Shown: positions 6,075 through 47,570, numbered from the stretch's first letter. The stretch: DNA of 63,877 nucleotides from an uncultured Alphaproteobacteria bacterium (GCA_937888725.1 CALARE010000092.1:1-63877); one strand, 5' to 3'. The notes: generated from the sequence alone by a model not told the origin. Numbers and translations: made by a program.

Positions 6075-7740
6075 AGATTTAGAAGAAATTATCATCCCAA
6101 AAGATAAATTGGTGTTTGTTCCAATTGGTGGTGCAACAGGTGTTGGGATGAATTGTTTTGCCTATGGATATCAAGGTAAATGGCTTGTTGTTGATTTGGG
6201 TGTTGGTTTTCCTGGCGATGGATTGCCTGGGGTTGATGTCTTATTGCCTGATGTCTCGTTTTTAGAAACGCATAAAAAAGATATTGTTGGTCTTGTCATT
6301 ACACACGGACATGAAGACCATATTGGTGCTGTTGGTAGGTTGTGGCGATCATTGCAATGTCCTATTTATTTGTCGGCCTTTGCCAATGAGTTATTGGAAA
6401 GTAAAATGGTTGAGGCTGGATTACTCGGTCGGGCGGATATTCATGTGTGTGAATTAGATTCTGAAATTGAGTTGGCGCCATTTGAAATAGAATTTATCTC
6501 GATGAGCCACTCAATTCCAGAGGCAAATGCACTTAAAATTAAGACAAAAAAAGGCGTTGTTGTACATACAGGAGATTGGAAATTGTCACCCGATCCTGTT
6601 TTGGGGCAAAAAACAAATGAAAAGCGGTTAAAAGCTATTGGAAAGGAAGGTGTTTTAGCACTTGTTTGTGATTCAACAAATGTATTTAGTCCTGAAACAG
6701 AGTTAACAGAAAGTGATGTTAAAAAAGAACTTGAAAAATTAATTGCTACATTTGATGGACGGCAAGTAGCGGTGGCTTGTTTTGCATCAAATGTCAGCCG
6801 TGTTAAAAGTATTTATCATGCCGCAAAGGTAAATGGGCGTGAAGTGTGCCTTATGGGGCGTAGTTTGTGGCGAATGGATGCAGCGGCTCGAGCTTGTGGT
6901 TATTTTGATGATGTGCCAGAATTTTTATCAGAGTCAGAAGCGTTGGAGCGGCCTGTTGGTTCAGTATTATATATTTGTACTGGCTCGCAAGGTGAACCCA
7001 GATCAGCATTAAGTAATTTGTCTGCACTAACACCACAAAAAAATTCGGTGTTTTTTGGCCCAGGTGATGTTGTTGTTTTTTCATCAAGAATTATTCCTGG
7101 AAATGAAAAGGCTATTGCTTTATTGCAAAAACGGTTTAAAACAAAAGAGGTTCAAATTGTAACAAATAAAGATGCAAATATTCATGTATCTGGTCATTTT
7201 TCTGGTAAAGAGCTTCAGCAAATGTACAAGTGGATTAAACCTAAAATTGCGTTGCCAGTTCATGGGGAGGCTAGGGAGCTGAATGAACATGTGAGATTAG
7301 CGTTGCAATGGGGGGCAAAATATGCTTATGCATTAGAAGATGGTGATGTTCTTGTCTTGGAGGATAATCCTGAGAAAATTGGGCAAGTTGAAAATGGTAT
7401 TCTTGCTGTCGATGGTAAGAAAATTTTATCATTGGGTGCAGAAGTTATTCGCAAACGGCGTAAAATGATTGAAGATGGAACAATGGTTGTAACGCTTGTT
7501 TTGAATTCAGAAAATGAAGTTCTTGGTCAGCCTAAAATATCATCTTTCGGCTTAATTGAAGATGGGGGTGAGGATGAGATGCGTTTAAAAAATGAAATTG
7601 TTGCTGATGTAAAAGCTTTGCAATCAGATATTGTTCGTGATGATTTGGTTGAAAATGCAATTAGAACAGCTGTCCGTCGTTTTTTAAAAGAGTTTTATGG
7701 GAAAAAGCCTTTAATTGAGGTGCATTTGGTTCGCGTGTGA
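6052..7740 (+). CDS. rnj: Ribonuclease J (metallo-beta-lactamase/beta-CASP)
   Basis: HGHEDHIG motif, HTGDWK, VHGEARE; 562 aa. Confidence 0.9.
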   Translation: MKEKIMNEDLEEIIIPKDKLVFVPIGGATGVGMNCFAYGYQGKWLVVDLGVGFPGDGLPGVDVLLPDVSFLETHKKDIVGLVITHGHEDHIGAVGRLWRSLQCPIYLSAFANELLESKMVEAGLLGRADIHVCELDSEIELAPFEIEFISMSHSIPEANALKIKTKKGVVVHTGDWKLSPDPVLGQKTNEKRLKAIGKEGVLALVCDSTNVFSPETELTESDVKKELEKLIATFDGRQVAVACFASNVSRVKSIYHAAKVNGREVCLMGRSLWRMDAAARACGYFDDVPEFLSESEALERPVGSVLYICTGSQGEPRSALSNLSALTPQKNSVFFGPGDVVVFSSRIIPGNEKAIALLQKRFKTKEVQIVTNKDANIHVSGHFSGKELQQMYKWIKPKIALPVHGEARELNEHVRLALQWGAKYAYALEDGDVLVLEDNPEKIGQVENGILAVDGKKILSLGAEVIRKRRKMIEDGTMVVTLVLNSENEVLGQPKISSFGLIEDGGEDEMRLKNEIVADVKALQSDIVRDDLVENAIRTAVRRFLKEFYGKKPLIEVHLVRV

Positions 7741-7814: not shown

Positions 7815-8621
7815 ATGACTGAAAAATATAATGTAATTTGTATCAAATGGGGTGGTTATTATAAGGCTAAGGATGTGAATAACCTTTGTTCAATGATAAA
7901 AAGAAACACTCGTTTTGATATTGATTTTTATTGTTTTACAGAAGATGGCTCTGGTTTAAATGAAGATGTTATTGTGAAACCGTTACCTGAATTTCAAAAT
8001 ATTAAAAAGGGTGAGGAAGAATATACAAAAAAATATGCTTATCGTAAAGAAGCTGGTCTATGTGATGATGAACTGGGTGGTCTTGCTGGGCAACGTGTTT
8101 TCTTTTTTGATTTAGACTCTTTGATTGTTGGTAATTTAGATGAATTTTTTATGTATCCACAAGATGAAAAGTTTTATATCATCAATGATTGGCATACAAA
8201 TGGTAACCATGTTGGACAAGCAAGTTGTTATTCTTGGGTTGTTGGAACGCTTGGATTTGTTAAAAAATATTTTGAGGAGCATCCCAAAGAGGTTGTTGAC
8301 AAATTTTATACCGCTTCACAAGAGTATTTATCATCAAAAGTGATTGAAAAGTGGGGGAGTTTAAATTTTTGGCCAGAAAATTGGTTTAAAAGTTTTCGTT
8401 TCCACTGTTTGCCATTTCCTTTGTTTCGATATTTTGTTGCACCTAAAATGCCAAAGGTTGATGGGATGAAAATGATTGCATTTCATGGCAATCCAGGGTT
8501 ACAAGATGCGATTAATGGTATTTGGTGCTCAAATCCGAATGATCGAAAATATCCAAGAGGGTATAAAAAGCTTTATAAACATGTGTTGCCATCAGAATGG
8601 ATTTTAGATTATTGGAAATAG
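7815..8621 (+). CDS. Putative glycosyltransferase (conserved IKWGxxY...V..L N-terminus)
   Basis: The VICIKWGGYYKAKDVNNL start matches, from my memory only, a family usually annotated as glycosyltransferase. The next gene (GT52-like) starts 1 nt after its stop. Confidence 0.35.
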   Translation: MTEKYNVICIKWGGYYKAKDVNNLCSMIKRNTRFDIDFYCFTEDGSGLNEDVIVKPLPEFQNIKKGEEEYTKKYAYRKEAGLCDDELGGLAGQRVFFFDLDSLIVGNLDEFFMYPQDEKFYIINDWHTNGNHVGQASCYSWVVGTLGFVKKYFEEHPKEVVDKFYTASQEYLSSKVIEKWGSLNFWPENWFKSFRFHCLPFPLFRYFVAPKMPKVDGMKMIAFHGNPGLQDAINGIWCSNPNDRKYPRGYKKLYKHVLPSEWILDYWK

Positions 8622-8622
8622 T

Positions 8623-9609
8623 ATGCGTACAATTAATCAAATTTTTATCGCTAATTCAGTTTACGCATTTTTTCTTTATTGTATGAAGTTTATTAAAGAG
8701 GTTGATAGTACATTGTTTGTATTGGGACCTTCTTGTGCTTTTGCTGAAGTTTCGCATTTTTTGCCAGTTGTTGCACCAGATGATAAAAAAGATTTGGATG
8801 CGTATAAAGAACTGATTAAGCGACAGGTTTTTTTCTTATTATCTGGGCGAAAAGTGCCTTGTTATGGCAATGTAGAAACGATATATTCTCAGTTTTTTAT
8901 TGAGACGTTTGATTTTTATCCGATGACTGATGGGTTGCGTGATACGGTAACATTTCCCATGTATTTGAAAAATAATTTGTTTAAAAAATGTTATACTGTT
9001 AGGTATTCAGGTGGTTTGGATTTGGTTCATCCACAGTTGGAATATATGGATATTAAACAGTTGTGGGAAGATTTGACAGTTGATGAGAAAAATAAAATAG
9101 CACGCATTTTTCTGTTGGAAAAGACGGCTTTTTTTGATTTGCAAAAAAAGAAAAAGATTCTAATTACACAACCCTTATTTGAAGATGGAATTTGTTCATT
9201 AGAAGACAAAATTAAAATTTATAAACAGATTTTATCTAATTATAATTTAAATGAAATTGTTATTAAACCACATCCTCGTGAGTCCACAAATTGGAAAGAA
9301 ATTTTTCCAGATGTGTCTGTTATGCCTCATCATATTCCATCTGAGGTTATTCCAATGATTGTTCCTGATTTGGATAAAGTGATTACTTTCTTTTCAACGG
9401 CAGCTTTTAATATGTTGAAACCTGAACAAATTGATTTTTATGCAAAAGATTTTAAACAGTTGCGTTATTATAAAACGGCCCCATATAAAGACAATGGTGT
9501 CCAATATAAACCAATTGCCTCTTTTGATGTAGAGGAAAAGTATAAGGTCTATGCGTTTAATTGGAAAAAAATTCCAGATGAAGATGGGTATTTTTATTCA
9601 AAAGATTAG
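8623..9609 (+). CDS. GT52-like glycosyltransferase (sialyltransferase family, Lst-like)
   Basis: The pattern resembles Neisseria Lst as I recall it: N-terminal IFIANSVYAFFLY, HP motif IKPHPRE, IPSEVIP, and ITFFSTAAFNM. Confidence 0.55.
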   Translation: MRTINQIFIANSVYAFFLYCMKFIKEVDSTLFVLGPSCAFAEVSHFLPVVAPDDKKDLDAYKELIKRQVFFLLSGRKVPCYGNVETIYSQFFIETFDFYPMTDGLRDTVTFPMYLKNNLFKKCYTVRYSGGLDLVHPQLEYMDIKQLWEDLTVDEKNKIARIFLLEKTAFFDLQKKKKILITQPLFEDGICSLEDKIKIYKQILSNYNLNEIVIKPHPRESTNWKEIFPDVSVMPHHIPSEVIPMIVPDLDKVITFFSTAAFNMLKPEQIDFYAKDFKQLRYYKTAPYKDNGVQYKPIASFDVEEKYKVYAFNWKKIPDEDGYFYSKD

Positions 9610-32448: not shown

Positions 32449-33078
32449 ATGAAAGTTTTAATGTTAAATGGAAGCTCAAATATACAAGGATGCACATATA
32501 CGGCTTTAAATGAAATTGCCAATCAATTGGAACAAGAAAATATTGAAACGGAAATTTTGCAATTAGGTGTACAGGCATATCATGATTGTACAGGCTGTGG
32601 AGCTTGTCGAAATGTGCTCAATGGCAAATGTATTTTCGATGATGATATTGTAAATACCTTGATTGAAAAAGCATCAACAGCTGATGGTTTTATTTTTGGA
32701 ACACCTGTTTATTATGCACATCCATCAGGAAGATTATTATCTGTACTGGATAGGGCTTTTTTTGCAGGTGGTCAACATTTTAAATTTAAACCAGCTGCAG
32801 CTATTGCGTCAGCAAGGCGGGCAGGGACAACAGCCACTTTAGATGTGATAAACAAGTATTTTACAATCAATCAAATGCCTATTGTTTCATCATCATATTG
32901 GAATATGGTGCATGGACAAAAACCAGAGGATGTTTTAAAAGATTTGGAAGGATTGCAAACAATGCATCATTTGGCTAAAAATATGGTGTATTTTTTAAAG
33001 CTTATTGAGCTTGGTAGACAAAATAACATTTTTCCACCAGATAATCAAAAAGAGGTTGTAACTAATTTTATTCGCTAA
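32449..33078 (+). CDS. Flavodoxin-fold NAD(P)H-dependent FMN reductase / iron-sulfur flavoprotein family
   Basis: MKVLMLNGSS start, Cys cluster CTGCGAC...C, and GFIFGTPVYYAHPSG. Its 3' end overlaps the convergent GT80-like gene by 11 nt. Confidence 0.7.
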   Translation: MKVLMLNGSSNIQGCTYTALNEIANQLEQENIETEILQLGVQAYHDCTGCGACRNVLNGKCIFDDDIVNTLIEKASTADGFIFGTPVYYAHPSGRLLSVLDRAFFAGGQHFKFKPAAAIASARRAGTTATLDVINKYFTINQMPIVSSSYWNMVHGQKPEDVLKDLEGLQTMHHLAKNMVYFLKLIELGRQNNIFPPDNQKEVVTNFIR

Positions 33079-34351
33079 CTTTTTTCAAGCTTGACCAATG
33101 ATAGTTTTGGATAAGAGAGGTTTCAAAGACCTCTTTTTTATTGTTTTGTAAAACTTTTTTATCCTTTGTTTCAAGCAGAATCTTATAACAATTATCATTA
33201 TTGAATTGGCAATACTCATCATTAATTTTAACAAACCAAAAATTGTTATCAACTCTAAAAATAGAAAGTTCTTCCAACTTTTTAATGGCAGTTTCTTCAG
33301 TATATATCTGTGTTTCAGATGTAATAAGGCCTGCTTTTTTTAGTGTTGGGATATAAAAATCATTTTTTCCTCGTGCAATATATGACAGGAGAGAATCGGG
33401 AGTTAAATTTGCAAAAACAGAAGATCCAATACCACTTACATATTTAGGGGTCATTTTGCTTAAAATTAAAAATTCAAATGGTAGGTGTGCATCCATTTTT
33501 TGTATATTAGGGCAAAAATGAGTTAAAACTTTTTTTGTTGGTGTTAGATAATTGCTTGGGTGTGGTTTGTAAAACCATGTAACATCTTTTTGAGAAGAAC
33601 AAACATCTTTTAAAGCGATTAATTGATGACAATTCAACGGATATCCTGCTACAAATCCCAATAAATAGACACCGATTTCTTTATCTTTTAAATTTTTTTG
33701 ATATTTTTTTAAATCAATACCAGTCAATTTTGCTAACTTTTTTATGTCATCTTTAGAAAGTTCATTGGCGATTTTGTGAAAATCAACTGGAATTATATTA
33801 ACATAATTTTTTAGCTTTGAAATTTCATCACAATGAATAAGCGGGTTATTCCCTGAACAAAATTTTTTATCATCTCCCCACATATATAATTTATGTTTTA
33901 TATCAGGATTGTCATAAAAAATATAATTTCTCCCTTTTGCCCACCACATATAATTTGATGCATCTTCATATGCATAAGATTCTAATATTTTTTCTTTAGG
34001 GATATGTTTAATAAATTCATTAAAAAAATAGTCATGATGAAGGTTATGATGAAGGATTATCTTTGAACGAGGATATTTTTTTAAAAGTTGTTGAAGTTCA
34101 TCAAGAAGATTTCTCCAACTAGAAGCAAAAAAGGTATTTTGATAGGTATTTTTATTTTGAATATGTGAATAAAAACGTTCCCAATAAATAAGTTTTATAT
34201 CTCTTTTAGGGGTGTGAATATAATCAACCATTTGCAGGAGAGAAGGTGATGATGCTTTGTCAAAATAGACATAAATTTTTCGGGGGGGGGGTAGCTGAAT
34301 AACAGAAAAAATACTAATAAAAACAATGAGTAATTTTAAATAAATTTTCAT
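33068..34351 (-). CDS. GT80-like sialyltransferase homolog (PmST1/Photobacterium type) with an N-terminal signal anchor
   Basis: The sequence lines up with PmST1 as I recall it. KIYVYFDKASSPSLLQMVDY matches TLYLDPASLPALNQLMDF, and YEDAS matches YDDGS. The HP motif is YKPHPS, followed by LPFEFLIL and GIGSSVF. ATG 34351 has a GGTGAG RBS; the track start at 34387 is probably too long. Confidence 0.7.
   Translation of the reverse strand: MKIYLKLLIVFISIFSVIQLPPPRKIYVYFDKASSPSLLQMVDYIHTPKRDIKLIYWERFYSHIQNKNTYQNTFFASSWRNLLDELQQLLKKYPRSKIILHHNLHHDYFFNEFIKHIPKEKILESYAYEDASNYMWWAKGRNYIFYDNPDIKHKLYMWGDDKKFCSGNNPLIHCDEISKLKNYVNIIPVDFHKIANELSKDDIKKLAKLTGIDLKKYQKNLKDKEIGVYLLGFVAGYPLNCHQLIALKDVCSSQKDVTWFYKPHPSNYLTPTKKVLTHFCPNIQKMDAHLPFEFLILSKMTPKYVSGIGSSVFANLTPDSLLSYIARGKNDFYIPTLKKAGLITSETQIYTEETAIKKLEELSIFRVDNNFWFVKINDEYCQFNNDNCYKILLETKDKKVLQNNKKEVFETSLIQNYHWSSLKKVSE
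34282..34291 (-). repeat. Poly-C(10) homopolymer (G10 on + strand) inside the GT80-like CDS
   Basis: CTA CCC CCC CCC CGA encodes L-P-P-P-R, 60 nt after the preferred start codon. Confidence 0.95.
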
Positions 34352-34405
34352 AAAGTTCTCACCTGTTGACCCGATGTTCTGATCCAAATATCTCCATGTT
34401 ATTGA

Positions 34406-34972
34406 TTATTGTTGATAACACCGTTTTTGAAATTTATAAAAATATTTAAGTATTTTTTCACAAATTTCTTCAGGTGTTTTATTAGTTGTATCAATAATCA
34501 AATCGAAATTAGCATCATTATCAATATCGACATGATAAAGCTTTTTAAAACGTTCTACTTCTAAAGCACGTCTCATTTTTAAATCAGTTTCAGCTTCATC
34601 AACGCTTTTATAAGCCCGTTCCTCTGTTCGTGTTTTATCATTAAAAATACGCTCAGCTGCAACATGTGTATCAATATTGAGTTTGACTTTAAATGAGGAG
34701 GGGATAAAAAAGAATGCCAATCTTGAATCAACAATAAAATTATCATTTTCATTTATGAGCGTTTTGAAAACGCCATCAATTTGTTTATCAATGCTATAAT
34801 CTGTCATTGATAATTTGTTCAATTCGAGGGTTGTAATACCTCTTTCTTGAGCGATTTTACGCTGTGCACTTCCTGTAGAATAAAACGTATAATTCAACTG
34901 TTTTGCAAGCATTTTTCCAATTGTGGACTTTCCACTCCCAAGCATACCAGAAAGTGAAATGATAAAATGCAT
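34406..34972 (-). CDS. P-loop nucleotide kinase of the cytidylate-kinase-like family
   Basis: Walker A SGMLGSGKSTIGKMLA; ~188 aa. ATG 34972 follows AAGGGGGA; the track start at 34987 is a TTG lying inside that RBS. Confidence 0.6.
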   Translation of the reverse strand: MHFIISLSGMLGSGKSTIGKMLAKQLNYTFYSTGSAQRKIAQERGITTLELNKLSMTDYSIDKQIDGVFKTLINENDNFIVDSRLAFFFIPSSFKVKLNIDTHVAAERIFNDKTRTEERAYKSVDEAETDLKMRRALEVERFKKLYHVDIDNDANFDLIIDTTNKTPEEICEKILKYFYKFQKRCYQQ

Positions 34973-35000: not shown

Positions 35001-36989
35001 TTAAATATCTAAGTTTTCAACAAAACGAGCATGTTCTTGAATAAATTGAAATCTATATTCAGGCTTATTCCCCATTAATCTAGAAACGATATTCTTTGTA
35101 TAAACAGCTTCTTCCGCTTCTTCTTCCGTCGTTTTATGGGGTACAACTACACGAAGGAGTGTACGTTTTTTGGGGTCCATTGTCGTTTCTTTCAACTGAT
35201 GAGGAGGCATTTCACCGAGACCTTTAAAGCGTGAAATATCCACATTCTTGGCATTTTTAAAGACTGTTTTAAGGACAACTTCCTTTTCAGCATCATCAGC
35301 GGCATAAACCGATTTTCCCCCTTGCGTTAAGCGATAAAGGGGCGGTAACGCAATGAAAAGATGCCCGTTTTCGATTAATTTTGGCATTTCTTGATAGAAA
35401 AATGACATCAATAATGAGGCAATGTGTGCTCCATCAACGTCCGCATCTGTCATGATAATGACTTTTTCATAACGCAAGGCATCTTCATTATACTTATCTC
35501 TACGACCGCAACCCAATGCTTCGGTCATATCTTTAATTTCTTCATTTGCTAAAATTTTATCTTGAGAGGCACTAATGACGTTTAAAATCTTCCCTCTTAA
35601 CGGTAAAATAGCTTGTGTTTCACGGTTTCGAGCTTGTTTAGCAGAACCACCAGCAGAATCCCCTTCAACTAAGAATAATTCTGTTCCAGTTGTTTTGTTA
35701 TGAGAACAATCCGCCAATTTGCCAGGTAAACGTAACTTTTTTGTTGCACTAGCACGAACAGTTTCAAGTGTCTTCTTCTTGCGTTTTCTTTCTTCAGCCC
35801 GCTCAACAATATAATCTAACAAGGCATTTGCAGATTTGATATCACGACTGAGCCAATGGTCAAATGGGTCTTTAATCGCATTTTCAACCAAACGAGCAGC
35901 ACTTGTTGTAACGAGCTTTTCTTTTGTCTGTCCTTGGAATTGTGGATCTTTGATGAAAACGGATAACATAACGCCAGCGGTATTTAAAATGTCATCAGCT
36001 GTAATATCGGCAGCCTTTTTATTCCCAGACATTTCAGCATAAGCCCTGAGTGATTTTGTAAGGCCAGCTCTTAAACCTGTTTCATGTGTCCCGCCAAGAG
36101 GTGTCACAACTGTGTTACAATAAGAATATGAAAAGCCATCTTTAAAATCGTCTGGCCAACAAATTGCCCACTCAACCGCTCCTTCGTTATCAGGTAATTC
36201 AACACGGCCAGAAAAAGGCTTTGGTGTGACGGTTGTTCTGTCTTTAATTAAATAATCCAAAAAGTCGGCAACCCCATTAGGGAATTTTAAAATTTGTTCT
36301 GTTGGTGTTTTGTCATCTGAACCGATTAAGGAGGCGTCACATGACCAACGAATTTCAACCCCGCGGAACAAAAAGGCTTTTGTTCGGCTCATTCTAAAGA
36401 GTGTTGAGGGTTTAAATTTTGTTGTTTCTCCAAAAATTTCTGTATCAGGGATAAATGAAACACTTGTCCCTCTGCGATTGCTGACAGAACCAACGCAAAC
36501 CAAATCAGTTACAGGCTTGCCTTGTTTATATTCTTGACGATAAAGTTTTTTATCCCTTGCAACTTCAATAATCATATGAGAGGAAAGGGCATTCACAGCC
36601 GATAGACCCACACCATGCAAACCACCAGACACAGCATAAGCGTTTCCGCCAAATTTGCCCCCTGAGTGTAATGTTGTGGTGATGACCTCTAACGCTGATT
36701 TGTCGGGGTATTTGGGATGTGGATCAACTGGGATACCTCGACCATTATCTTTGACGGTTACATAGCCATCTTGGCTTAAATTAACCTCGATATTTGTGGC
36801 ATAACCAGCCACGGCCTCATCCATAGCATTATCAATAATTTCAGCGACTAAGTGATGATAAGCACGTTCATCAATTCCGCCGATATACATCCCTGGACGT
36901 TTGCGTACAGGTTCCAACCCTTCTAGAACTTCAATATCTCTAGCAGAGTACTCATTTTTTTGTGGTGTAGCATTAAATAAATCAGACAT
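35001..36989 (-). CDS. parE: DNA topoisomerase IV subunit B
   Basis: GHKL and Toprim motifs: HHLVAEIIDNAMDE, GLHGVGLSAVNALS, LVEGDSAGGS, PLRGKILNV, IMTDADVDGAHI. The 662-aa length, without the GyrB insertion, favours ParE over GyrB. Confidence 0.85.
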   Translation of the reverse strand: MSDLFNATPQKNEYSARDIEVLEGLEPVRKRPGMYIGGIDERAYHHLVAEIIDNAMDEAVAGYATNIEVNLSQDGYVTVKDNGRGIPVDPHPKYPDKSALEVITTTLHSGGKFGGNAYAVSGGLHGVGLSAVNALSSHMIIEVARDKKLYRQEYKQGKPVTDLVCVGSVSNRRGTSVSFIPDTEIFGETTKFKPSTLFRMSRTKAFLFRGVEIRWSCDASLIGSDDKTPTEQILKFPNGVADFLDYLIKDRTTVTPKPFSGRVELPDNEGAVEWAICWPDDFKDGFSYSYCNTVVTPLGGTHETGLRAGLTKSLRAYAEMSGNKKAADITADDILNTAGVMLSVFIKDPQFQGQTKEKLVTTSAARLVENAIKDPFDHWLSRDIKSANALLDYIVERAEERKRKKKTLETVRASATKKLRLPGKLADCSHNKTTGTELFLVEGDSAGGSAKQARNRETQAILPLRGKILNVISASQDKILANEEIKDMTEALGCGRRDKYNEDALRYEKVIIMTDADVDGAHIASLLMSFFYQEMPKLIENGHLFIALPPLYRLTQGGKSVYAADDAEKEVVLKTVFKNAKNVDISRFKGLGEMPPHQLKETTMDPKKRTLLRVVVPHKTTEEEAEEAVYTKNIVSRLMGNKPEYRFQFIQEHARFVENLDI

Positions 36990-37038
36990 AGGGGTATATT
37001 AACCAAAATCTTTTTAAAACGCAAGCAAAAAAAAGCTT

Positions 37039-37685
37039 TTAATTGGTTTTTTCTTGTGTCGTGTATTCTCTATATTGATATGTTTCAATAAGTGAAAAAG
37101 TGTGTGTTTTGTTATTAGGTAATTGAATGGATATTTGCTTTTCTGTTTCGTTTAAAATTTTAAAACATTCATCTTTTAAAATAGGACACATTGTTTGAGA
37201 GTCTTTTTTCCATACCCATAATAAAGAGAGATGATGAAAATCCTGCAACTCCTTTTGGTTTTAACCCTGTAATGAGTAAAAGTTCAAACGGGATATGTGC
37301 ATCGATTTGTTGGATGTTGGGACATAGATGGTTGAGGACTGTATGTGTTGGTTGATAATGTTTGTTGGGGTGATATTTAATGAACCAATCTCTTTCTCTA
37401 GTGCAGAGCCGTTTTAAGCCAGATAATTGTGTTGCGATATTCGGTTTTTTTTTAATCAGTTCCAAGAATGTAGATGAATGCATTTTTATTTTGCAGTTGA
37501 TTTTTGATTTTTTGGTAATCAAATCCTGCTAGTTTAAAAATTTTTTCTTTTTCATCAGTTGTTAATGTTGTGCCAATTTTATTAAAATTAATGTTAACGG
37601 GTGTTACCTGTTTTAAAATGTTGAATACGATGGGCATCTTACTATTTGACTGTCTTTTGGACAAAGTTTTTTCATATCGCCCCAA
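37039..37685 (-). pseudogene. Decayed paralog of the GT80-like gene at 33068..34351 (N-terminus missing, at least 2 frameshifts)
   Basis: Three ORF fragments in different frames align in order with the intact paralog. VTPVNINFNKIGTTLTTDEKEKIFKLAGFDYQKIKNQL pairs with IIPVDFHKIANELSKDDIKKLAKLTGIDLKKYQKNL. KYHPNKHYQPTHTVLNHLCPNIQQIDAHIPFELLLITGLKPKGVAGFSSSLF pairs with YKPHPSNYLTPTKKVLTHFCPNIQKMDAHLPFEFLILSKMTPKYVSGIGSSVF. Confidence 0.8.
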
Positions 37686-37800
37686 ATCACAATAAAAAAA
37701 TATTTTTTAATCAAGTAAAATTAAAAACCATTGTTATTGACAAAAAAGATGAAACGGTGTATTATTTTGGCAATTTAATTAGATAGAAAAGGATTATAAA

Positions 37801-40704: not shown

Positions 40705-40869
40705 TTACATAAAAAATTCTTCATCTTCATCAGCAACTTCCATTGCAACAAATTCCTCCTCCTCATCAAGGGAGGAAGAGTTTTCTTTTTGCAGGATGTC
40801 CTTTTGAAGCACTGGCTTTCCCAATGGTTCAGATGTAAATAATGCTTTTAAAAGTTCAAGTAGAGTCAT
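40705..40869 (-). CDS. 54-aa acidic peptide translationally coupled to the GHKL gene (not in the ORF track)
   Basis: ATGA overlap: ATG at 40869..40867 shares two bases with the TGA stop at 40868..40866. Sequence: MTLLELLKALFTSEPLGKPVLQKDILQKENSSSLDEEEEFVAMEVADEDEEFFM. Confidence 0.55.
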   Translation of the reverse strand: MTLLELLKALFTSEPLGKPVLQKDILQKENSSSLDEEEEFVAMEVADEDEEFFM

Positions 40870-43800
40870 GTGTTTTTATCCTTTTTATCGGATAGAAATA
40901 TAGCTTTTAAATCCGTAAAATGTTTTCCCGTAAAATACAATTCTTTTGTTCTATTATTAAATGAAACTTCTATTTTTTTACTAGCTAAATTTGTAGAAAT
41001 ATCTATATTTTTAATTACGTTTCTTAATTCATTTAAAATTGGTTCATTGTTTCTAACCCATTCAATATATTCTGCTGCACAATTTGGACACAGTGCCAAA
41101 TATTGATATGGATATTCTCTTTCCATCTTTGAAAAAATTTGAACACTTTCAAAATGATAAGAACCATTTTTCTTTTTAAAAGGAAGTTCATTCTGACAAA
41201 ACTGACAAATCATAATATCATCTTCGTTTGTATATTCATTTTTAAGATAAACAGTTGTTGTTTCTTTTATATCTGAATTTGTTATTCTAATAGATCGTTC
41301 TTTTATTTCATACTGCTGATTTTGGGATGTAGAAAATTCTTCTTCCCGTTTTATTAATCTATTGTGAGCATTTTTAGTTTCAGAGCAAGGAAGAGTTGGT
41401 TTTTGTCTTTCTGACCTAATGGATTTTTTAAAAATCTCTTGAATATCAAGACCATTTTCTTCAGCTTGTTTAGCCCATTGAGCGAGAAATTCCATTTGTT
41501 GATTATCTTTAAATCCAGCTTTTTGAGCAAATTCGTTTTTTCGTTTTTCTTCCTCAATTCTTTCAGTTTCACTTTCTCCAAAACCAATTGCTTTTAAAAC
41601 TGGATTATTATAACCATCTTCCGGAATTGTCCAGCCATCTGGTAATCTTTCAAATGTCATATCTTCGGGGCAGTTTCTGTTCCCATCCTTATCTAAAATC
41701 CAACAGAGTTTTTTTAATCTATAGATATAAGCAGATGGACATTCATGTCTGGAATCTCTATTATTAGCCATGTAAACAGCTGTTAACGTGTCTTTGCCTG
41801 CTTTAATTATTGTTTCCCATATAATTTTAGAAGCTTTTTTTACTCTTCTAGGATGTATCATATCGAAAAAACAATATAATTTATAATCTATGTTACGGCA
41901 ATAATCAGTTTCATTTTTACCAGATGGATTTAATTTTGTTTCGTATAAAGGATTATCATGACAGTTACTGCTGATAATTTTTATTTCATGCCAAATTCCC
42001 AATTCTTTTAATAATAAAATAAAATCTGTTAATTCTTCTTTTTTTAATTTTTCTTTATACTCGGCAGAAAGTTCTTTTTTGCTTCCTTGAAAAAGAAAAT
42101 TAAAATCATTTTCTTCATAAATATTCCCTAGCATTAAAGAAGATGGTTTATAATAACATTTATCATCTCCAACAACAAAACTTGTTTCACGTAAATCATA
42201 TCTTTTTGATGGATATTCTTTTATTGCTTGAAGAATTATTTTAATATCTTTAATATTTTCCTCTATTGGAATTTTTTTAATGGGATAATCTGTATATTTT
42301 TCAATAAGTTCATCGCAAAGGGTTTCTATTGAATATTCTTTTATTCCCAACTCTTTGAAAATTGAAATCATTTCATAATCTTCTTTTTTGTTTTTTATAC
42401 AAAGTTCTGAATGTATAAAATCATATTTTTCAAGAATGTCGTTAGAAATATTTCCTTGGGGTTTTAAAAGGGGTTTATCATTTAGACTGATAACATTTTT
42501 GGCTTCTGTTAAAAATAAATCTATTGTCGAAACTTTTTCTTGATTATAATCATAATTATTAACATATTCTTTCACTTTTTGATATAACAATTTCAATTGA
42601 GGAATTTCTTTTTGTTTTAAAACATCTTTCCATAAGTTTCGTTTTTCAGAATTATACCATGAAATTCTAAGAGGAACATCATAATCAAATATCTTAATTA
42701 GATGCCGAAATAATTCATACCAGCCATAAGATCTAATATCTAAATCGTGTAAAAATTTATCAGCCCTTGAATTTCTTTGACTTGCATTTTTAACCCACAT
42801 GGGTGATTGACAATTATCATCGGTTTCTTCCAAATTTAAGATTTGTGCCAATTCATCATCTGATAAGAATGTATCTATTCTTTCTTCAGAAAAAAACAGC
42901 CCTGAAGCTGGGGCAAATTCTCCTGTTTTTGTAGGTGTTAAACTTTCTTCTTGGAATAATTTTATAATTTTAGAATGAAATCCTTTGTAAGCATCTGGTA
43001 AATCATCATCTCTATTTGGAAGAATTCGCAAAAAATCAGTAGATAGCATATTGTTATCTTTAATCCAAAATAAACTTTCTTTTTGCAATTCAACAAGAAT
43101 TGATAAAAGTTTTGCATTATCTTGTGTATCTCTAATACTAGCTCTAGAGATTTCACAGGCAAATGGTGCATTAATTAAAAATTTTAAATGGGAATCCTCT
43201 TTTTCAGCTGGAAACCATATAAAAACATTATGCTTTTGTGTTGAAGGAACAATTTTATATAATTTATTTCCATTATTATCTATTTCGGTATCTAATTGGT
43301 ATGCAATTGATACAGTAGTGGATATTTTATCTTCTGTTTCTATTTTAAAAAAAGGTTCCGTTCTTTGAAATTTTAAATATTCACATTCTTGGTTATGCCA
43401 ACCTTCTGCACTTAATAAAACAAAATGATTTTCTTCTACTTTTGTAATTATTTGAGTTGTTTTTCCATTTATCCATTTTATATGTGTAATGTTGTTTAAA
43501 AATAAAAGTGTTTCAGCTTTTAAGTTTTTTAATCCTTCTAAAATTTCTTGACAGGCAATTTCCTTTGGCTTCTCTTTGCGATTAAAAGGAAATTTAAAAT
43601 AGGTTATATTAGTATTAGGAAAATCTATTTTTTGTTCGATATTAACACGTTCTGGTATAACCATATCAGTTATTTTAAATTTCCATTTATCAGATATAAT
43701 TATCGGTGTATTTGTATAGGCATAAACGGCTTTAAATCCCACACCAAATTTTCCCACGCTTGTTCCATCATCTTTTTTTGTACTATTCGCAATATTTGTA

Positions 43801-44054
43801 ATTGAATCTATATCATACAATGAAAATAATTTATTTCCGTTATGGGAAAAAATGAGATAGTCTTTTCTTAAATCAAAAATCACTTCTGTTGCCTGAGCAT
43901 CTTCAGCATTTTGTATTAATTCATATATAAAATGAGCTTTATCAGGATAAAGGTCAGTTAATAATTTACGAAGACCAATATCAAAATTATTATCTTTGCT
44001 TGAGTTAACCCAATCCAGTCTTTTTTTTGCTAATTCCTCAAAAGATTTTACCAT
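40866..44054 (-). CDS. Sacsin-type GHKL (HATPase_c_3-like) ATPase, 1062 aa, with a C-terminal CxxC...CxxC zinc ribbon
   Basis: N-box FIYELIQNAEDA (aa 42-53), G-box GKFGVGFKAVY (aa 101-111), FLINAPFACEISRASIRD. The zinc ribbon CQFCQ...CPNC is encoded at 41079..41207. An AAGGA RBS sits in the 15-nt gap after the upstream gene. Confidence 0.8.
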   Translation of the reverse strand: MVKSFEELAKKRLDWVNSSKDNNFDIGLRKLLTDLYPDKAHFIYELIQNAEDAQATEVIFDLRKDYLIFSHNGNKLFSLYDIDSITNIANSTKKDDGTSVGKFGVGFKAVYAYTNTPIIISDKWKFKITDMVIPERVNIEQKIDFPNTNITYFKFPFNRKEKPKEIACQEILEGLKNLKAETLLFLNNITHIKWINGKTTQIITKVEENHFVLLSAEGWHNQECEYLKFQRTEPFFKIETEDKISTTVSIAYQLDTEIDNNGNKLYKIVPSTQKHNVFIWFPAEKEDSHLKFLINAPFACEISRASIRDTQDNAKLLSILVELQKESLFWIKDNNMLSTDFLRILPNRDDDLPDAYKGFHSKIIKLFQEESLTPTKTGEFAPASGLFFSEERIDTFLSDDELAQILNLEETDDNCQSPMWVKNASQRNSRADKFLHDLDIRSYGWYELFRHLIKIFDYDVPLRISWYNSEKRNLWKDVLKQKEIPQLKLLYQKVKEYVNNYDYNQEKVSTIDLFLTEAKNVISLNDKPLLKPQGNISNDILEKYDFIHSELCIKNKKEDYEMISIFKELGIKEYSIETLCDELIEKYTDYPIKKIPIEENIKDIKIILQAIKEYPSKRYDLRETSFVVGDDKCYYKPSSLMLGNIYEENDFNFLFQGSKKELSAEYKEKLKKEELTDFILLLKELGIWHEIKIISSNCHDNPLYETKLNPSGKNETDYCRNIDYKLYCFFDMIHPRRVKKASKIIWETIIKAGKDTLTAVYMANNRDSRHECPSAYIYRLKKLCWILDKDGNRNCPEDMTFERLPDGWTIPEDGYNNPVLKAIGFGESETERIEEEKRKNEFAQKAGFKDNQQMEFLAQWAKQAEENGLDIQEIFKKSIRSERQKPTLPCSETKNAHNRLIKREEEFSTSQNQQYEIKERSIRITNSDIKETTTVYLKNEYTNEDDIMICQFCQNELPFKKKNGSYHFESVQIFSKMEREYPYQYLALCPNCAAEYIEWVRNNEPILNELRNVIKNIDISTNLASKKIEVSFNNRTKELYFTGKHFTDLKAIFLSDKKDKNT

Positions 44055-44069
44055 GTGTTTTATCCTTTT

Positions 44070-47000
44070 TTATTCATGCACAATTTTAACAATTCCTGAT
44101 AAAATAGGTGTTCTATGTATGTCTGCAGTTTTTGAAATTTTATCTAATTCTTTCAATTTGTTTTGATATTCATTTTCAATTTTCAAAATCCAATTTTCTT
44201 GCATATCTTTAATCCCAGAAGACCTTTGTTTTGCTACATTTTTTCGAGCATTTGTTGAAACTTCAAGACTTTTTGTTTTGTAATCTTTCCATTGTTGAGT
44301 ATTAAGTTTGTGGTCTTCAGCGTCTTTTTGCCATAACAAATGAACTTCCTCTTTAATTTTTTGCCAAGCATCTTCAGGGAACTTTGTATCTGGAATTGGA
44401 GCTCCAACTTCCAATAAATTCAATAGATTTTCTTCTATCGCCTTTTCTGAACAAATCGCTTTTAATTTAATATTTGGTGTAAAACCTTTGTATTCCCAAG
44501 AAAAGATTTGAAAAGGATATTCTCCTTCAGGAATATCATTGTCTATAATTTTGAATGCAGTTCTAATTGGCATTTTAGACTCAAATTCATTTGCTGCAGC
44601 TATTACAAGAGGATGTAGCGGCATAATAAATTGAATATTTTGATCTATTCGTGCAGTTCCCATATCAAAAGTAATAGGAATTGTTTGATCAAAACCTTTT
44701 AAATAATTTTCCCAACTCTTATATATTTTTCCTTTTCTATGTGGTAATTTTAAATAATCATCCAATAAAAGTTGTTTTACTTCTTTTGATAAACGAAGAG
44801 AGCGTTTAGCTCCTGTCCCAGTTATTACATTAGAATTTGTTTTCTTTTGCAAATATGCAATAACTATTTTTTCTAGAGCAATAGGAGATATCCAATAATT
44901 TTCAAATTTTTCAACTTCCTTTTCGGATGTTAATTTGTTTGGAATGCAAAATAGTTCTAGTTGATGTTTTTCTAAATCCCTTTGTTCTAAAATACTTTGA
45001 TAGTGATTTTGAGCAATTTTTTCCAACTTTTTATCTTTTTGCTCAGGAGTTAATTTTGTATTTTCACAAACAGATTTAATTTCATTATGAATTTCACCAA
45101 GAATTTCATCACAATCCCCTATACTTTCTTGAAAGATATTAATTCTGTTCAAACATCTATAGTAAATACTTGCATCTATGGTTCCTTGAACGACCATATT
45201 GTATATTGCAACTGCTTCACTTTGTTGGCCAAATCTATCAATTCTACCAATTCGTTGCTCAATTTTCATTGGATTCCACGGTAAATCATAATTAATCATT
45301 GTATCGCAGAATTGATAATCTAATCCCTCACATCCAACATCAGAGAATAATAACACATCAAAAGAATCAGAATGATTTTCACTTTCTTTAAACCTGTTTC
45401 TGATTTGAACTCGTTCGGTATCATCAATTCCACCATGAATTAATCCAACTCGAATCCCTTTGTTTTCAAGTTGTTCTTTTAAGTAAGTTAATGTATGCCT
45501 AAATGTACTAAAAACAATTACCTTTTTATTCTCTAATGTTTGTTTTTCTTGAATCACTTTATAAAATGCTTCAAATTTCGGGTCATATGGTGGTAAATTT
45601 TCAGCTTCATAGATTAATTGATCAATTTCTTTTTTATATTTAATCAAAATATAATCATCTAATGAATTGCTATCTAAATCTTCATTAGAGGCAGAGATGT
45701 CGGAAAAATCTATGTCATCATTTTGAACGGTTTTATTAAAGATGGACCCGATAAGAGGAGATAATCCATGCAAGCAACTGGAAGCTTGGCGTTCTAATGT
45801 CGTCATCATGAATTTTACATTTGATGTCCCATGTAATTCTTCGAGTATCTTTGATTTTAAAGATATTAAATTGTCAAAAACAGATTGTTCTTCTTTACTA
45901 AATATAGCTTGAACTGTGTTAGAGTGGCGCATGCAAAAATCAGAAGCAACATCTTTTCTTTGAGTTCTGTTAATAATAGTCGAAAATGTGTGCATTTTAG
46001 ATAAGATATCAATGAGGGTAACTTTTTCTTCTAAAGACAAAACATCTTTTGCTAACATATCCATTACTTGTTTAAAATCAGGTCTTGATTTTATAAGATT
46101 CCCACCTGTTGTTTGAATAGCTGATAATAATTCATTTTTTGCGTTATTGTTTTTGTTTGCCCTGATATATCTTATAGCCGCATTTATATGCTTATTTGGT
46201 TGGTGCATAATATCAAATGTTTCCTTGTTTGGTAATAAATCTGGGCGTAAAAGATTTAATAAAACAAATAAATCATTATTTCCTAATTGAATAGGGGTTG
46301 CTGTTAAAAATACGATAGCTTCTGCAGACAAGCAAAATTGTTCCACAACTTGATGTCTAATTGCTTCTGGATTTTTAAGATGGTGTGCTTCATCCACAAT
46401 TACTAAATCAAAAGAAGGAAATGGGTTCAATTTTTTTAATATCTCTAAAGTATTTTTATCACAAATTGAAAATGGCAAAATTGCTTTTTTGTATTTTTCA
46501 GGCCATTCTCCTTCTATTGAGTATTCATCAATGCAATATTTAAGAGTGGATGAATCTAGTGTTTCAAAATCTTCATCAAATTTTTTCATTTCCTGTTCCC
46601 ACTTCCTCTCAGAAACGAGTGGTTTAGGGCAAATTACTAAAACAGATTTTAAATCATTTCTTATTTGTAATTCTCTTAAAATTAAACCAGCTTCAATTGT
46701 TTTACCAATTCCAACGCCATCTGCAATCAAAATTCTAGGTTGATCCGATTGCATTATTTTAATAACAGGTTTAAACTGATAAGGAATGGAATCGATTCTT
46801 GCAGCATTTAAAGAGTACAAGCTTGTCATTAAAGGTTGCCTAATAACAAATGATGTTAAATAATTTCTTACAGTTGATAATGGAATGAATGGATCTTCTT
46901 TTTTTTCAATACATTCTATTTGGTTAATATAAAAAGGCTTTATTTCTCCGTTAATAAATACAGATACTTCATTTCCATCAATTGATAAAACAACCCCTGT

Positions 47001-47570
47001 TATTGATGGGTTTGCTTTTATTCTAACAATTTTGTTTGGTTGTATTTGTTCTAATGATTTTGCTTCAAACGAATTTGTTATAGAAATAGGTTGTGATATA
47101 TTGGGTTCGATTATATCCTGTTCAATATCCTTAGATTTTATCATCAATTGTTTCACTGATGCTATGAATTCATCATTCGCACCAATTCCAGATAAAAAGA
47201 AATATAATGTATCTATATCTCTATTCATTTCTATATCAGAAAAATCATCAGTTTGATGTGCATACTTGTTTCTAATGATTTGCAATTCTTTTAAATAAGA
47301 TCTTAATTGCGGATTTAAATGATATTTAGAATTTAAATCATACCAGTTCTTGTCAAAAATTCTTAATAAACAAGATAAATCTAATTTATTAAGACTATCA
47401 ATTTGCTTTTGTTTTATCATTATATCTTGTTGGTATGATAATTTAGGTAAAACCATATTTTCCCAATAATTATCATCAATAGCAGTCATTTTAGTTTGAA
47501 GCCAAAAAGATAACTCTTTTTTTGCTTTAAATAAAGCATTTTGAATTTCTATAGAACGATTCATTTTCAC
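44070..47570 (-). CDS. HEPN-like (Swt1-type Rx4H) domain fused to a RapA-like Swi2/Snf2 ATPase, 1166 aa
   Basis: The N-terminus carries [14 protein letters not shown] (R100..H105, encoded at 47256..47273). Helicase motifs: I [75 protein letters not shown]. The last closely resembles RapA QRIGRLDRIGQ. Confidence 0.8.
   Translation of the reverse strand: [1166 protein letters not shown]

Follow-up and report, generated by a model that had tools for sequence, protein, structure and literature searches.

A candidate phase-variation switch has been identified in the 63,877-nucleotide stretch of DNA analysed here, which derives from an uncultured Alphaproteobacteria bacterium (GCA_937888725.1, CALARE010000092.1:1-63877) and is called the window in its whole length. 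A run of ten cytosines lies within the coding region of a gene for a predicted membrane-anchored GT80-type (PM0188-like) glycosyltransferase and, judging from sequence comparison and a structural model, this poly-C(10) run is probably a simple-sequence contingency switch. The switch is supported by the rarity of CCC codons and the improbability of the tract, by the dependence of the reading frame on its length, by the alleles that occur naturally in related genomes and by the identity of the encoded enzyme. Three of the five defining features of the simple-sequence-repeat (SSR) contingency genes were found, namely a G/C run of at least 8 nucleotides inside an open reading frame (ORF), a frameshift followed by an early stop when one unit is gained or lost, and a polymorphism between ON and OFF lengths in genes that are otherwise intact.

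The poly-C tract and its natural alleles

The tract is located on the minus strand (the plus strand reads GGGGGGGGGG, a G10 run) and comprises nucleotides 61-70 of the GT80-like gene. Its context in the coding strand is CAG CTA CCC CCC CCC CGA AAA ATT, which is translated as Q L P P P R K I, with residues Pro21 to Pro23 and the first base of the Arg24 codon being provided by the ten cytosines. The G+C content of the whole window is 34.2%, and the number of G/C runs of at least 10 nucleotides expected in it is about 0.004 under a Bernoulli model and about 0.014 under a first-order Markov model, the latter value being also obtained by extrapolating the decay of run lengths in the window. The observed three G8 matches were reached in 4 of 100 dinucleotide-preserving shuffles, which are a weaker control for the rarity of the tract. 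CCC represents 10.9% of the proline codons in the long ORFs of the window, and for a Pro-Pro-Pro sequence the probability that all three codons are CCC is about 0.0013. A homopolymer scan of the window revealed no other G/C run of at least 8 nucleotides, the next longest being a single G7, and no multi-base SSR array was detected in it with Tandem Repeats Finder, so that no second contingency locus can be named there.

Translation of alleles of different lengths produced a full-length protein only with C7, C10 or C13 among the lengths translated (426, 427 and 428 amino acids, respectively). The C9 form encodes 51 amino acids, with a stop 29 codons past the three prolines, and the C11 form encodes 30 amino acids, TGA being the eighth codon past them. 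An earlier interpretation made from the DNA sequence alone (the sequence-only reading) had described a 10-bp G:C homopolymer as very unexpected in a genome of roughly one-third G+C, had given the stop positions of C9 and C11, had stated that only C10, or a change of three bases, yields the enzyme, and had pointed to further G/C homopolymers of at least 8 nucleotides as something to look for. The improbability of the run has been confirmed by the expected numbers above, the recomputed frame arithmetic proved to be correct, and the scan of the window yielded no further homopolymer of this kind.

The orthologous gene was found in six contigs beside the same flavin mononucleotide (FMN)-reductase, rsmB and dcw-cluster genes. 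The relatives are metagenome-assembled Alphaproteobacteria from animal guts, and the more distant ones are titled yak and sheep rectum. The window carries C10 followed by G-A5 and is ON, with 427 amino acids. The contig L005 (Logan SRR6425795), 99.45% identical to the window over 6,538 bp, carries C9 and A5 and is OFF, with a product of 51 amino acids. In L006 (GCA_054278115.1), 99.07% identical over 10,156 bp, the run is split into C5 and C3 (CCCCCTCCC, then G-A6) and remains in frame (IPPPEK), which makes it a locked ON allele; interruptions of this kind keep a phase-variable gene stably ON. In a sister lineage, L001 (GCA_054288145.1; 74% amino acid identity in the gene and about 88% nucleotide identity in the flanks) carries C8 and is OFF, the gene being called from a downstream Met with 387 amino acids, and the contigs L007 and L008, which come from two separate runs and belong to the same 90% cluster as L001, carry C9 and A6 and are ON, with 427 amino acids. 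The assignment of L001 to the species of the window, to which its approximately 99% identical FtsA had pointed, was rejected on the identity of the flanks, only about 88% at the nucleotide level. Tract length thus differs among relatives (C10, C9, C8 and the interrupted form), and the invariance that the sequence-only reading had named as evidence against a switch was not observed.

The ancestral ON configuration is, as judged from these aligned alleles, C9+A6. The ON length is C10 in the lineage of the window and C9 elsewhere because five adenines instead of six follow the tract. A5 with C10 is in frame in the window and A5 with C9 is out of frame in L005, so that the frame has been corrected at the C run; the A run adjoining the tract may slip as well. 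More distant orthologues and the other paralogues contain no G/C run of at least 7 nucleotides and show at this site C5 (LPPK), CCACCACCA (PPP) or no run: L002 and L009 have CCCCC (LPPK), L003 has CCA CCA CCA (PPP) and L004 has none. Since the run is missing from distant orthologues and paralogues, the tract is a derived feature of one orthologue group, in which it has been kept in two lineages whose genes share 74% of amino acids and about 57% of synonymous third positions. The exact pattern of the tract context gave no match in the JGI metagenome contigs, and a protein-pattern scan of the same contigs retrieved one distant orthologue, L009, without the tract. Look-up of the 387-amino-acid hypothetical OFF product of the window allele returned no record, and therefore no OFF contig of the same strain was obtained.

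Enzyme family and fold

The window protein alone gave no match above threshold against Pfam and NCBIfam, and its membership in GT80 has therefore been drawn from profile and fold comparisons. A phmmer search of the PDB with this single sequence retrieved the Photobacterium phosphoreum enzyme 2zwi (8e-7) and PM0188 (about 1e-3). A search of 5.8 billion proteins revealed nine relatives only, several of them with PF11477, and the resulting ten-sequence family profile matched GT80 structures in the PDB with E-values from 2.6e-23 to 4.5e-15 over residues 24-331, PF11477 being matched individually by eight of the ten family members (best 2.3e-9). An AlphaFold2 model based on the family alignment (pLDDT 90.5, pTM 0.85) was compared with the PDB by Foldseek, and the top 24 neighbours were all GT80 sialyltransferases (E 2e-15 to 5e-12, TM 0.5-0.68), with other GT-B enzymes at 2.5e-6 or worse. 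PmST1 (PM0188), PdST from P. dagmatis and the alpha2,3 and alpha2,6 enzymes of Photobacterium resemble the model in their GT-B fold (Foldseek E 2e-15, TM 0.6-0.68). In an exhaustive HMMER search, 124 clusters at E <=1e-3 were recovered among 1.84 billion representatives; the family is therefore small.

The GT80 sialyltransferases and the window protein have in common the HP motif, the Ser-Ser pair, the Glu, the acidic pair and an N-terminal hydrophobic leader. Residues Y261-K262-P263-H264-P265 align with FKGHP of 2zwi, H264 and P265 being invariant in the family; P291-F292-E293 aligns with PFE, which contains the Glu of the cytidine monophosphate (CMP) site, and G307..S310-S311-x-F313 aligns with GMGSSVF, which contains the Ser-Ser of the same site, both being family-invariant; and Y128-E129-D130-A131 aligns with YDDG, the acidic pair being invariant. 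In PmST1 the catalytic residue of the HP motif is His311, the catalytic base in the D/E-D/E-G motif is Asp141, and CMP is bound by Glu338, Ser355 and Ser356 (PMC4202792). Profile, fold and four of the five motif features support the prediction of a distant GT80-type enzyme, most likely, as far as sequence and model indicate, a sialyltransferase or a transferase of another nonulosonic acid. Because of its N-terminal membrane helix and its relationship to GT80, the product would likely act on a surface structure. A beta-rich C-terminal extension of about 95 residues, found in the close family and without counterpart in solved GT80 structures, could be a carbohydrate-binding or membrane-association module.

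The model consists at its N-terminus of a helix (residues 3-18), the linker coded by the tract (Q19-L-P-P-P-R24) and strand beta1 (25-31), in agreement with the sequence-only reading, which had placed the tract just after the signal anchor. The description of the gene as a GT80-like sialyltransferase in the same reading is likewise borne out by the family profile, the PF11477 matches and the structural neighbours.

According to the proposed mechanism, slipped-strand mispairing at replication would add or remove one cytosine, and any length other than 10 ± 3 would shift the frame and stop translation after 30 or 51 residues, ahead of the first strand of the predicted catalytic GT-B fold, so that no enzyme would be made (OFF). 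A further slip would regain the frame (ON), presumably in a reversible manner within populations, and a change of three bases would do no more than lengthen or shorten a presumably tolerant linker by one proline. As a result, the population would be stochastically mixed for one terminal surface sugar. Because the switched product would be a membrane-anchored GT80-type enzyme, the phenotype probably consists in whether or not a surface glycan ends in a sialic-acid-like sugar, both donor and acceptor being putative, and the benefit could be the escape from recognition by phage, antibody or lectin, the candidate selective agents in the animal gut. The slipped-strand ON/OFF design advanced by the sequence-only reading is thus supported by allele comparison and frame logic; the lipooligosaccharide (LOS) target in that reading was an assumption.

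Alternative explanations

Several observations weigh against the proposed switch. Sequence identity with the characterised GT80 enzymes is only 15-19%, and all ten family members have Ala instead of Gly as the third residue of the D/E-D/E-G motif. No neuA, neuB, neuC or sialic-acid uptake gene was found within the 64-kb window, and the GT80-like gene is situated amid housekeeping genes, outside any lipopolysaccharide (LPS) or capsule cluster. The essential ftsA gene of L001 (10892-10900, minus strand) contains a coding-strand G9 run (GGG GGG GGG) for the three glycines of the conserved NGGGS motif. This run is broken in the window (GGGGGCGGA), L006 and L004 (GGGGGTGGA), and a long G/C run in this group thus need not be a switch. 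It differs from the glycosyltransferase tract in being confined to one genome, and it is well suited as a control site for errors or slippage at homopolymers. Finally, all the compared sequences are metagenome assemblies, in which a consensus error at a G/C run of 9-10 nucleotides is possible.

The C8, C9 and C10 forms might accordingly be read as consensus errors produced at the homopolymer by sequencing or assembly, with the ON/OFF pattern being noise, since the six contigs are all of metagenomic origin and runs of this length and composition are error-prone on several platforms. However, errors of this type would be expected at more than one site, and the window and L005 differ over the 6,538 aligned bp by 35 substitutions and one single indel, which is the tract, and 12 of the 12 other homopolymers of at least 7 nucleotides are identical between them. 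L007 and L008, although from separate runs, both have C9 and align over 3,948 bp with no indel, and the interrupted allele of L006 and the A5/A6 difference are substitutions or slips that preserve the frame, unlike random error. On these grounds an artefact is considered unlikely.

GT80-like paralogues occur in one to three copies among close relatives and at varying positions, some as tandem copies that separate the kinase-like gene from the candidate switched gene and others upstream of parE (L001 523-1947, 4593-5882 and 6001-7164; L007 1703-3001 and 3001-4284; L006 1962-3350 and 6001-7320). They are mutually 34-41% identical, and the poly-C run is present only in the copy beside the FMN-reductase gene. 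The second paralogue of the window is a pseudogene in which 573 bp and 176 bp are missing with respect to the intact L006 copy (462 amino acids, PF11477). It also has two indels of 1 bp, and one of these falls at an A9 run (window 37445-37453) where L006 reads GGAAAAAA. In L003, a sheep-rectum metagenome-assembled genome, the orthologue (about 6216-6285) has a 1-bp deletion outside repeats (TATCCAAAT to TATCAAAT) that splits the gene over two frames, and its 90% cluster is rich in truncated members (P0014-P0026), which suggests that in that lineage the gene is often inactivated or broken in assembly. The pseudogene, the L003 deletion, the variable copy number and the truncated calls would fit a process of gene decay, in which dispensable GT80 paralogues are being lost and the tract is a hot spot of irreversible frameshifts. 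This process is nevertheless improbable as an account of the tract, because the OFF alleles of L005 and L001 have no second lesion and keep the downstream 387 codons intact, each of the two lineages has ON as well as OFF alleles, the allele of the window seems to have been re-activated (A5 offset by C10) and the catalytic motifs are invariant.

It is very unlikely that the tract acts as a leaky rheostat, with the RNA polymerase or the ribosome slipping on C10, so that alleles of the wrong length yield some enzyme and the tract tunes its amount. Homopolymers of at least 9 nucleotides are known substrates of transcriptional slippage, and three prolines stall ribosomes without elongation factor P (EF-P), on which expression may also depend in a variant of this explanation, but the locked interrupted allele and the compensating C10 suggest that the frame at the DNA level matters for fitness.

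The start codon is relevant to the last alternative. The mechanical ORF call extends up to a TTG at 34387, and the ATG at 34351 is favoured because a Shine-Dalgarno-like AGGTGA is found 7 nucleotides upstream; L001 has AAGGAG at the equivalent position, and no such sequence was seen upstream of Met41 when the DNA was read directly. All full-length homologues open with MK and a hydrophobic stretch, codons 1-20 of the window gene show 90% amino acid identity to L001 and L007 with synonymous changes present, and residues 25-40 (IHVYxDKAxxPxLLQ, followed by Met41) are conserved in all full-length homologues. In the family profile the segment IHVYxDKAxxPxLLQM aligns from residue 2 onward of the GT80 crystal constructs, and in the AlphaFold2 model residues 25-40 correspond to beta1/alpha1 of the Rossmann domain. 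The conserved anchor, beta1 and part of alpha1 precede Met41, and a product started there would lack all three. It is hardly credible, given this conserved N-terminus and the ribosome-binding sequence restricted to ATG 34351, that the true start is Met41, at which gene callers begin the OFF alleles (P0002, P0011), so that the tract would belong to a 5' leader or to a small upstream ORF and would influence expression indirectly, if at all. A start downstream of the tract, which the sequence-only reading had regarded as contrary evidence, was thus not found.

Genomic context, related systems and significance

The features of the locus are compiled below.

Coordinates of the features in and around the GT80-like gene (positions in the window)
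Feature	Position	Strand	Remarks
GT80-like (PM0188-type) glycosyltransferase gene	33068-34351	-	427 amino acids; ATG at 34351, stop 33068-33070
Poly-C(10) tract	34282-34291	-	Candidate switch
A5 run directly past the tract (C10-G-A5)	34276-34280	-	A6 in L006, L007 and L008
Stop reached by -1 alleles (C9, C6, C12)	34195-34197	-	Ends the 51-amino-acid product; realised in L005
TGA reached by +1 alleles (C11, C8, C14)	34260-34262	-	Ends the 30-amino-acid product
Shine-Dalgarno-like AGGTGA	34359-34364	-	7 nucleotides upstream of ATG 34351
Codons 1-20 (MKIYLKLLIVFISIFSVIQL)	34292-34351	-	N-terminal hydrophobic helix; signal anchor or signal peptide
Met41 ATG	34229-34231	-	Start of gene callers for OFF alleles (387-amino-acid calls P0002, P0011)
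C-terminal beta-rich extension (residues 332-427)	33068-33355	-	In close family; no counterpart in solved GT80
Cytidylate-kinase-like gene	34406-34972	-	PF13189, 7.5e-17; upstream, same strand
parE-like topoisomerase subunit gene	35001-36989	-	Upstream, same strand as GT80-like gene
Decayed second GT80-like paralogue (pseudogene)	37039-37790	-	Between parE and gltX

The parE-like, kinase-like and glycosyltransferase genes are separated by intergenic gaps of 28 and 54 bp, and the synteny of the first two upstream of the GT80-like gene is kept in relatives. The three genes may form one transcription unit with the glycosyltransferase gene in the last position, and this gene converges on the FMN-reductase gene; truncation of its product would therefore be without polar effects. 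No convincing promoter or terminator was found around the locus, the consensus scan being no better than shuffles, and the operon structure can therefore only be inferred. In all relatives the cytidylate-kinase-like gene directly precedes the GT80 genes, and a functional tie to the CMP released by CMP-sugar transferases is conceivable. In the intergenic region upstream of parE (37027-37034), the window has T8 in the strand of parE (A8 in the plus strand) and L006 has T7, this being the sole indel between both sequences over the 10,156 aligned bp.

Another gene, at 8623-9609 (plus strand) and 25 kb from the GT80 gene, belongs to the GT52 family (Pfam Glyco_transf_52, 4e-27), which is that of the Lst sialyltransferases of Neisseria and Haemophilus, so that the organism may have several sialyltransferase-type enzymes. 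No homopolymer of at least 8 nucleotides was found inside this GT52-family gene, and the ORF located just upstream (7815-8621, plus strand, 268 amino acids) gave no Pfam or PDB match. Two large adjacent genes at 40866-47570 (minus strand) have the look of a defence island, one of them encoding a protein of 1166 amino acids with an N-terminal Swt1-like HEPN domain fused to a SNF2/helicase core and the other a protein of 1062 amino acids with a sacsin-type (SACS) domain.

Textbooks describe homopolymer switches in the surface-glycan genes of Neisseria, Haemophilus, Campylobacter and Helicobacter, and to our knowledge uncultured gut commensals and Alphaproteobacteria offer hardly any documented cases. 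In Neisseria, poly-G runs in the LOS glycosyltransferase ORFs lgtA, lgtC and lgtD switch the acceptor for sialylation; the case differs from the one presented here in that the sialyltransferase itself (Lst, GT52) is not known to be the switched gene, and also in the enzyme families. The LOS genes wlaN, cgtA and cst-II of Campylobacter jejuni, also a low-G+C gut bacterium, are alike in having an intragenic poly-G/C run of 8-10 nucleotides in which the gain or loss of a single base shifts the frame, truncates the product and so turns a terminal surface sugar ON or OFF; wlaN is ON with 8G and OFF with 9G, and cst-II is also a documented switch (PMC7248181). However, Cst-II is a GT42 enzyme with a GT-A fold and the window enzyme is GT80-like with a predicted GT-B fold, and the host of the window is an uncultured alphaproteobacterium in which the gene is outside any LOS cluster. 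The lic3A and lic3B genes of Haemophilus influenzae are similar in that a repeat at the 5' end of a sialyltransferase ORF produces translational ON/OFF switching, documented for lic3A as a (CAAT)n phase switch (PMC2651432), and they differ in the repeat, which is the tetranucleotide (CAAT)n and not a homopolymer, and in the family, GT42 and not GT80.

In the literature searched, no paper was found that combined GT80 with 'phase-variable', or sialyltransferase and Alphaproteobacteria with 'phase variation'. The mechanism is ordinary, but by that literature neither this enzyme family nor this host lineage has been linked to it before, and the comparative evidence is unusually clean. Our confidence is evenly divided on the broader proposal that this is the first phase-variable GT80 sialyltransferase, in an uncultured low-G+C alphaproteobacterial lineage of the animal hindgut with one to three GT80 paralogues and a GT52-family gene, that gut commensals, and not the classical mucosal pathogens alone, use the stochastic switching of host-like sialylation as a strategy and that the switch has been kept by selection across species-level divergence. 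The part of selection in this proposal is argued from the rare CCC codons kept in two lineages, the re-setting of the ON length from C9 to C10 following slippage in the adjacent A run, and the locked alleles of some strains.

If confirmed, the switch would indicate that public metagenome assemblies alone can reveal a contingency gene in its ON, OFF and locked forms. For annotation, the lesson would be that the 387-amino-acid 'hypothetical proteins' annotated in related genomes are gene calls made on the OFF phase of a 427-amino-acid enzyme. The small, divergent GT80 subfamily with an additional C-terminal domain is of possible use in glyco-engineering. Concerning the biology of the organism, a confirmed switch would suggest that host mimicry of the sialic-acid type is variably displayed by this lineage of the ruminant and animal gut.

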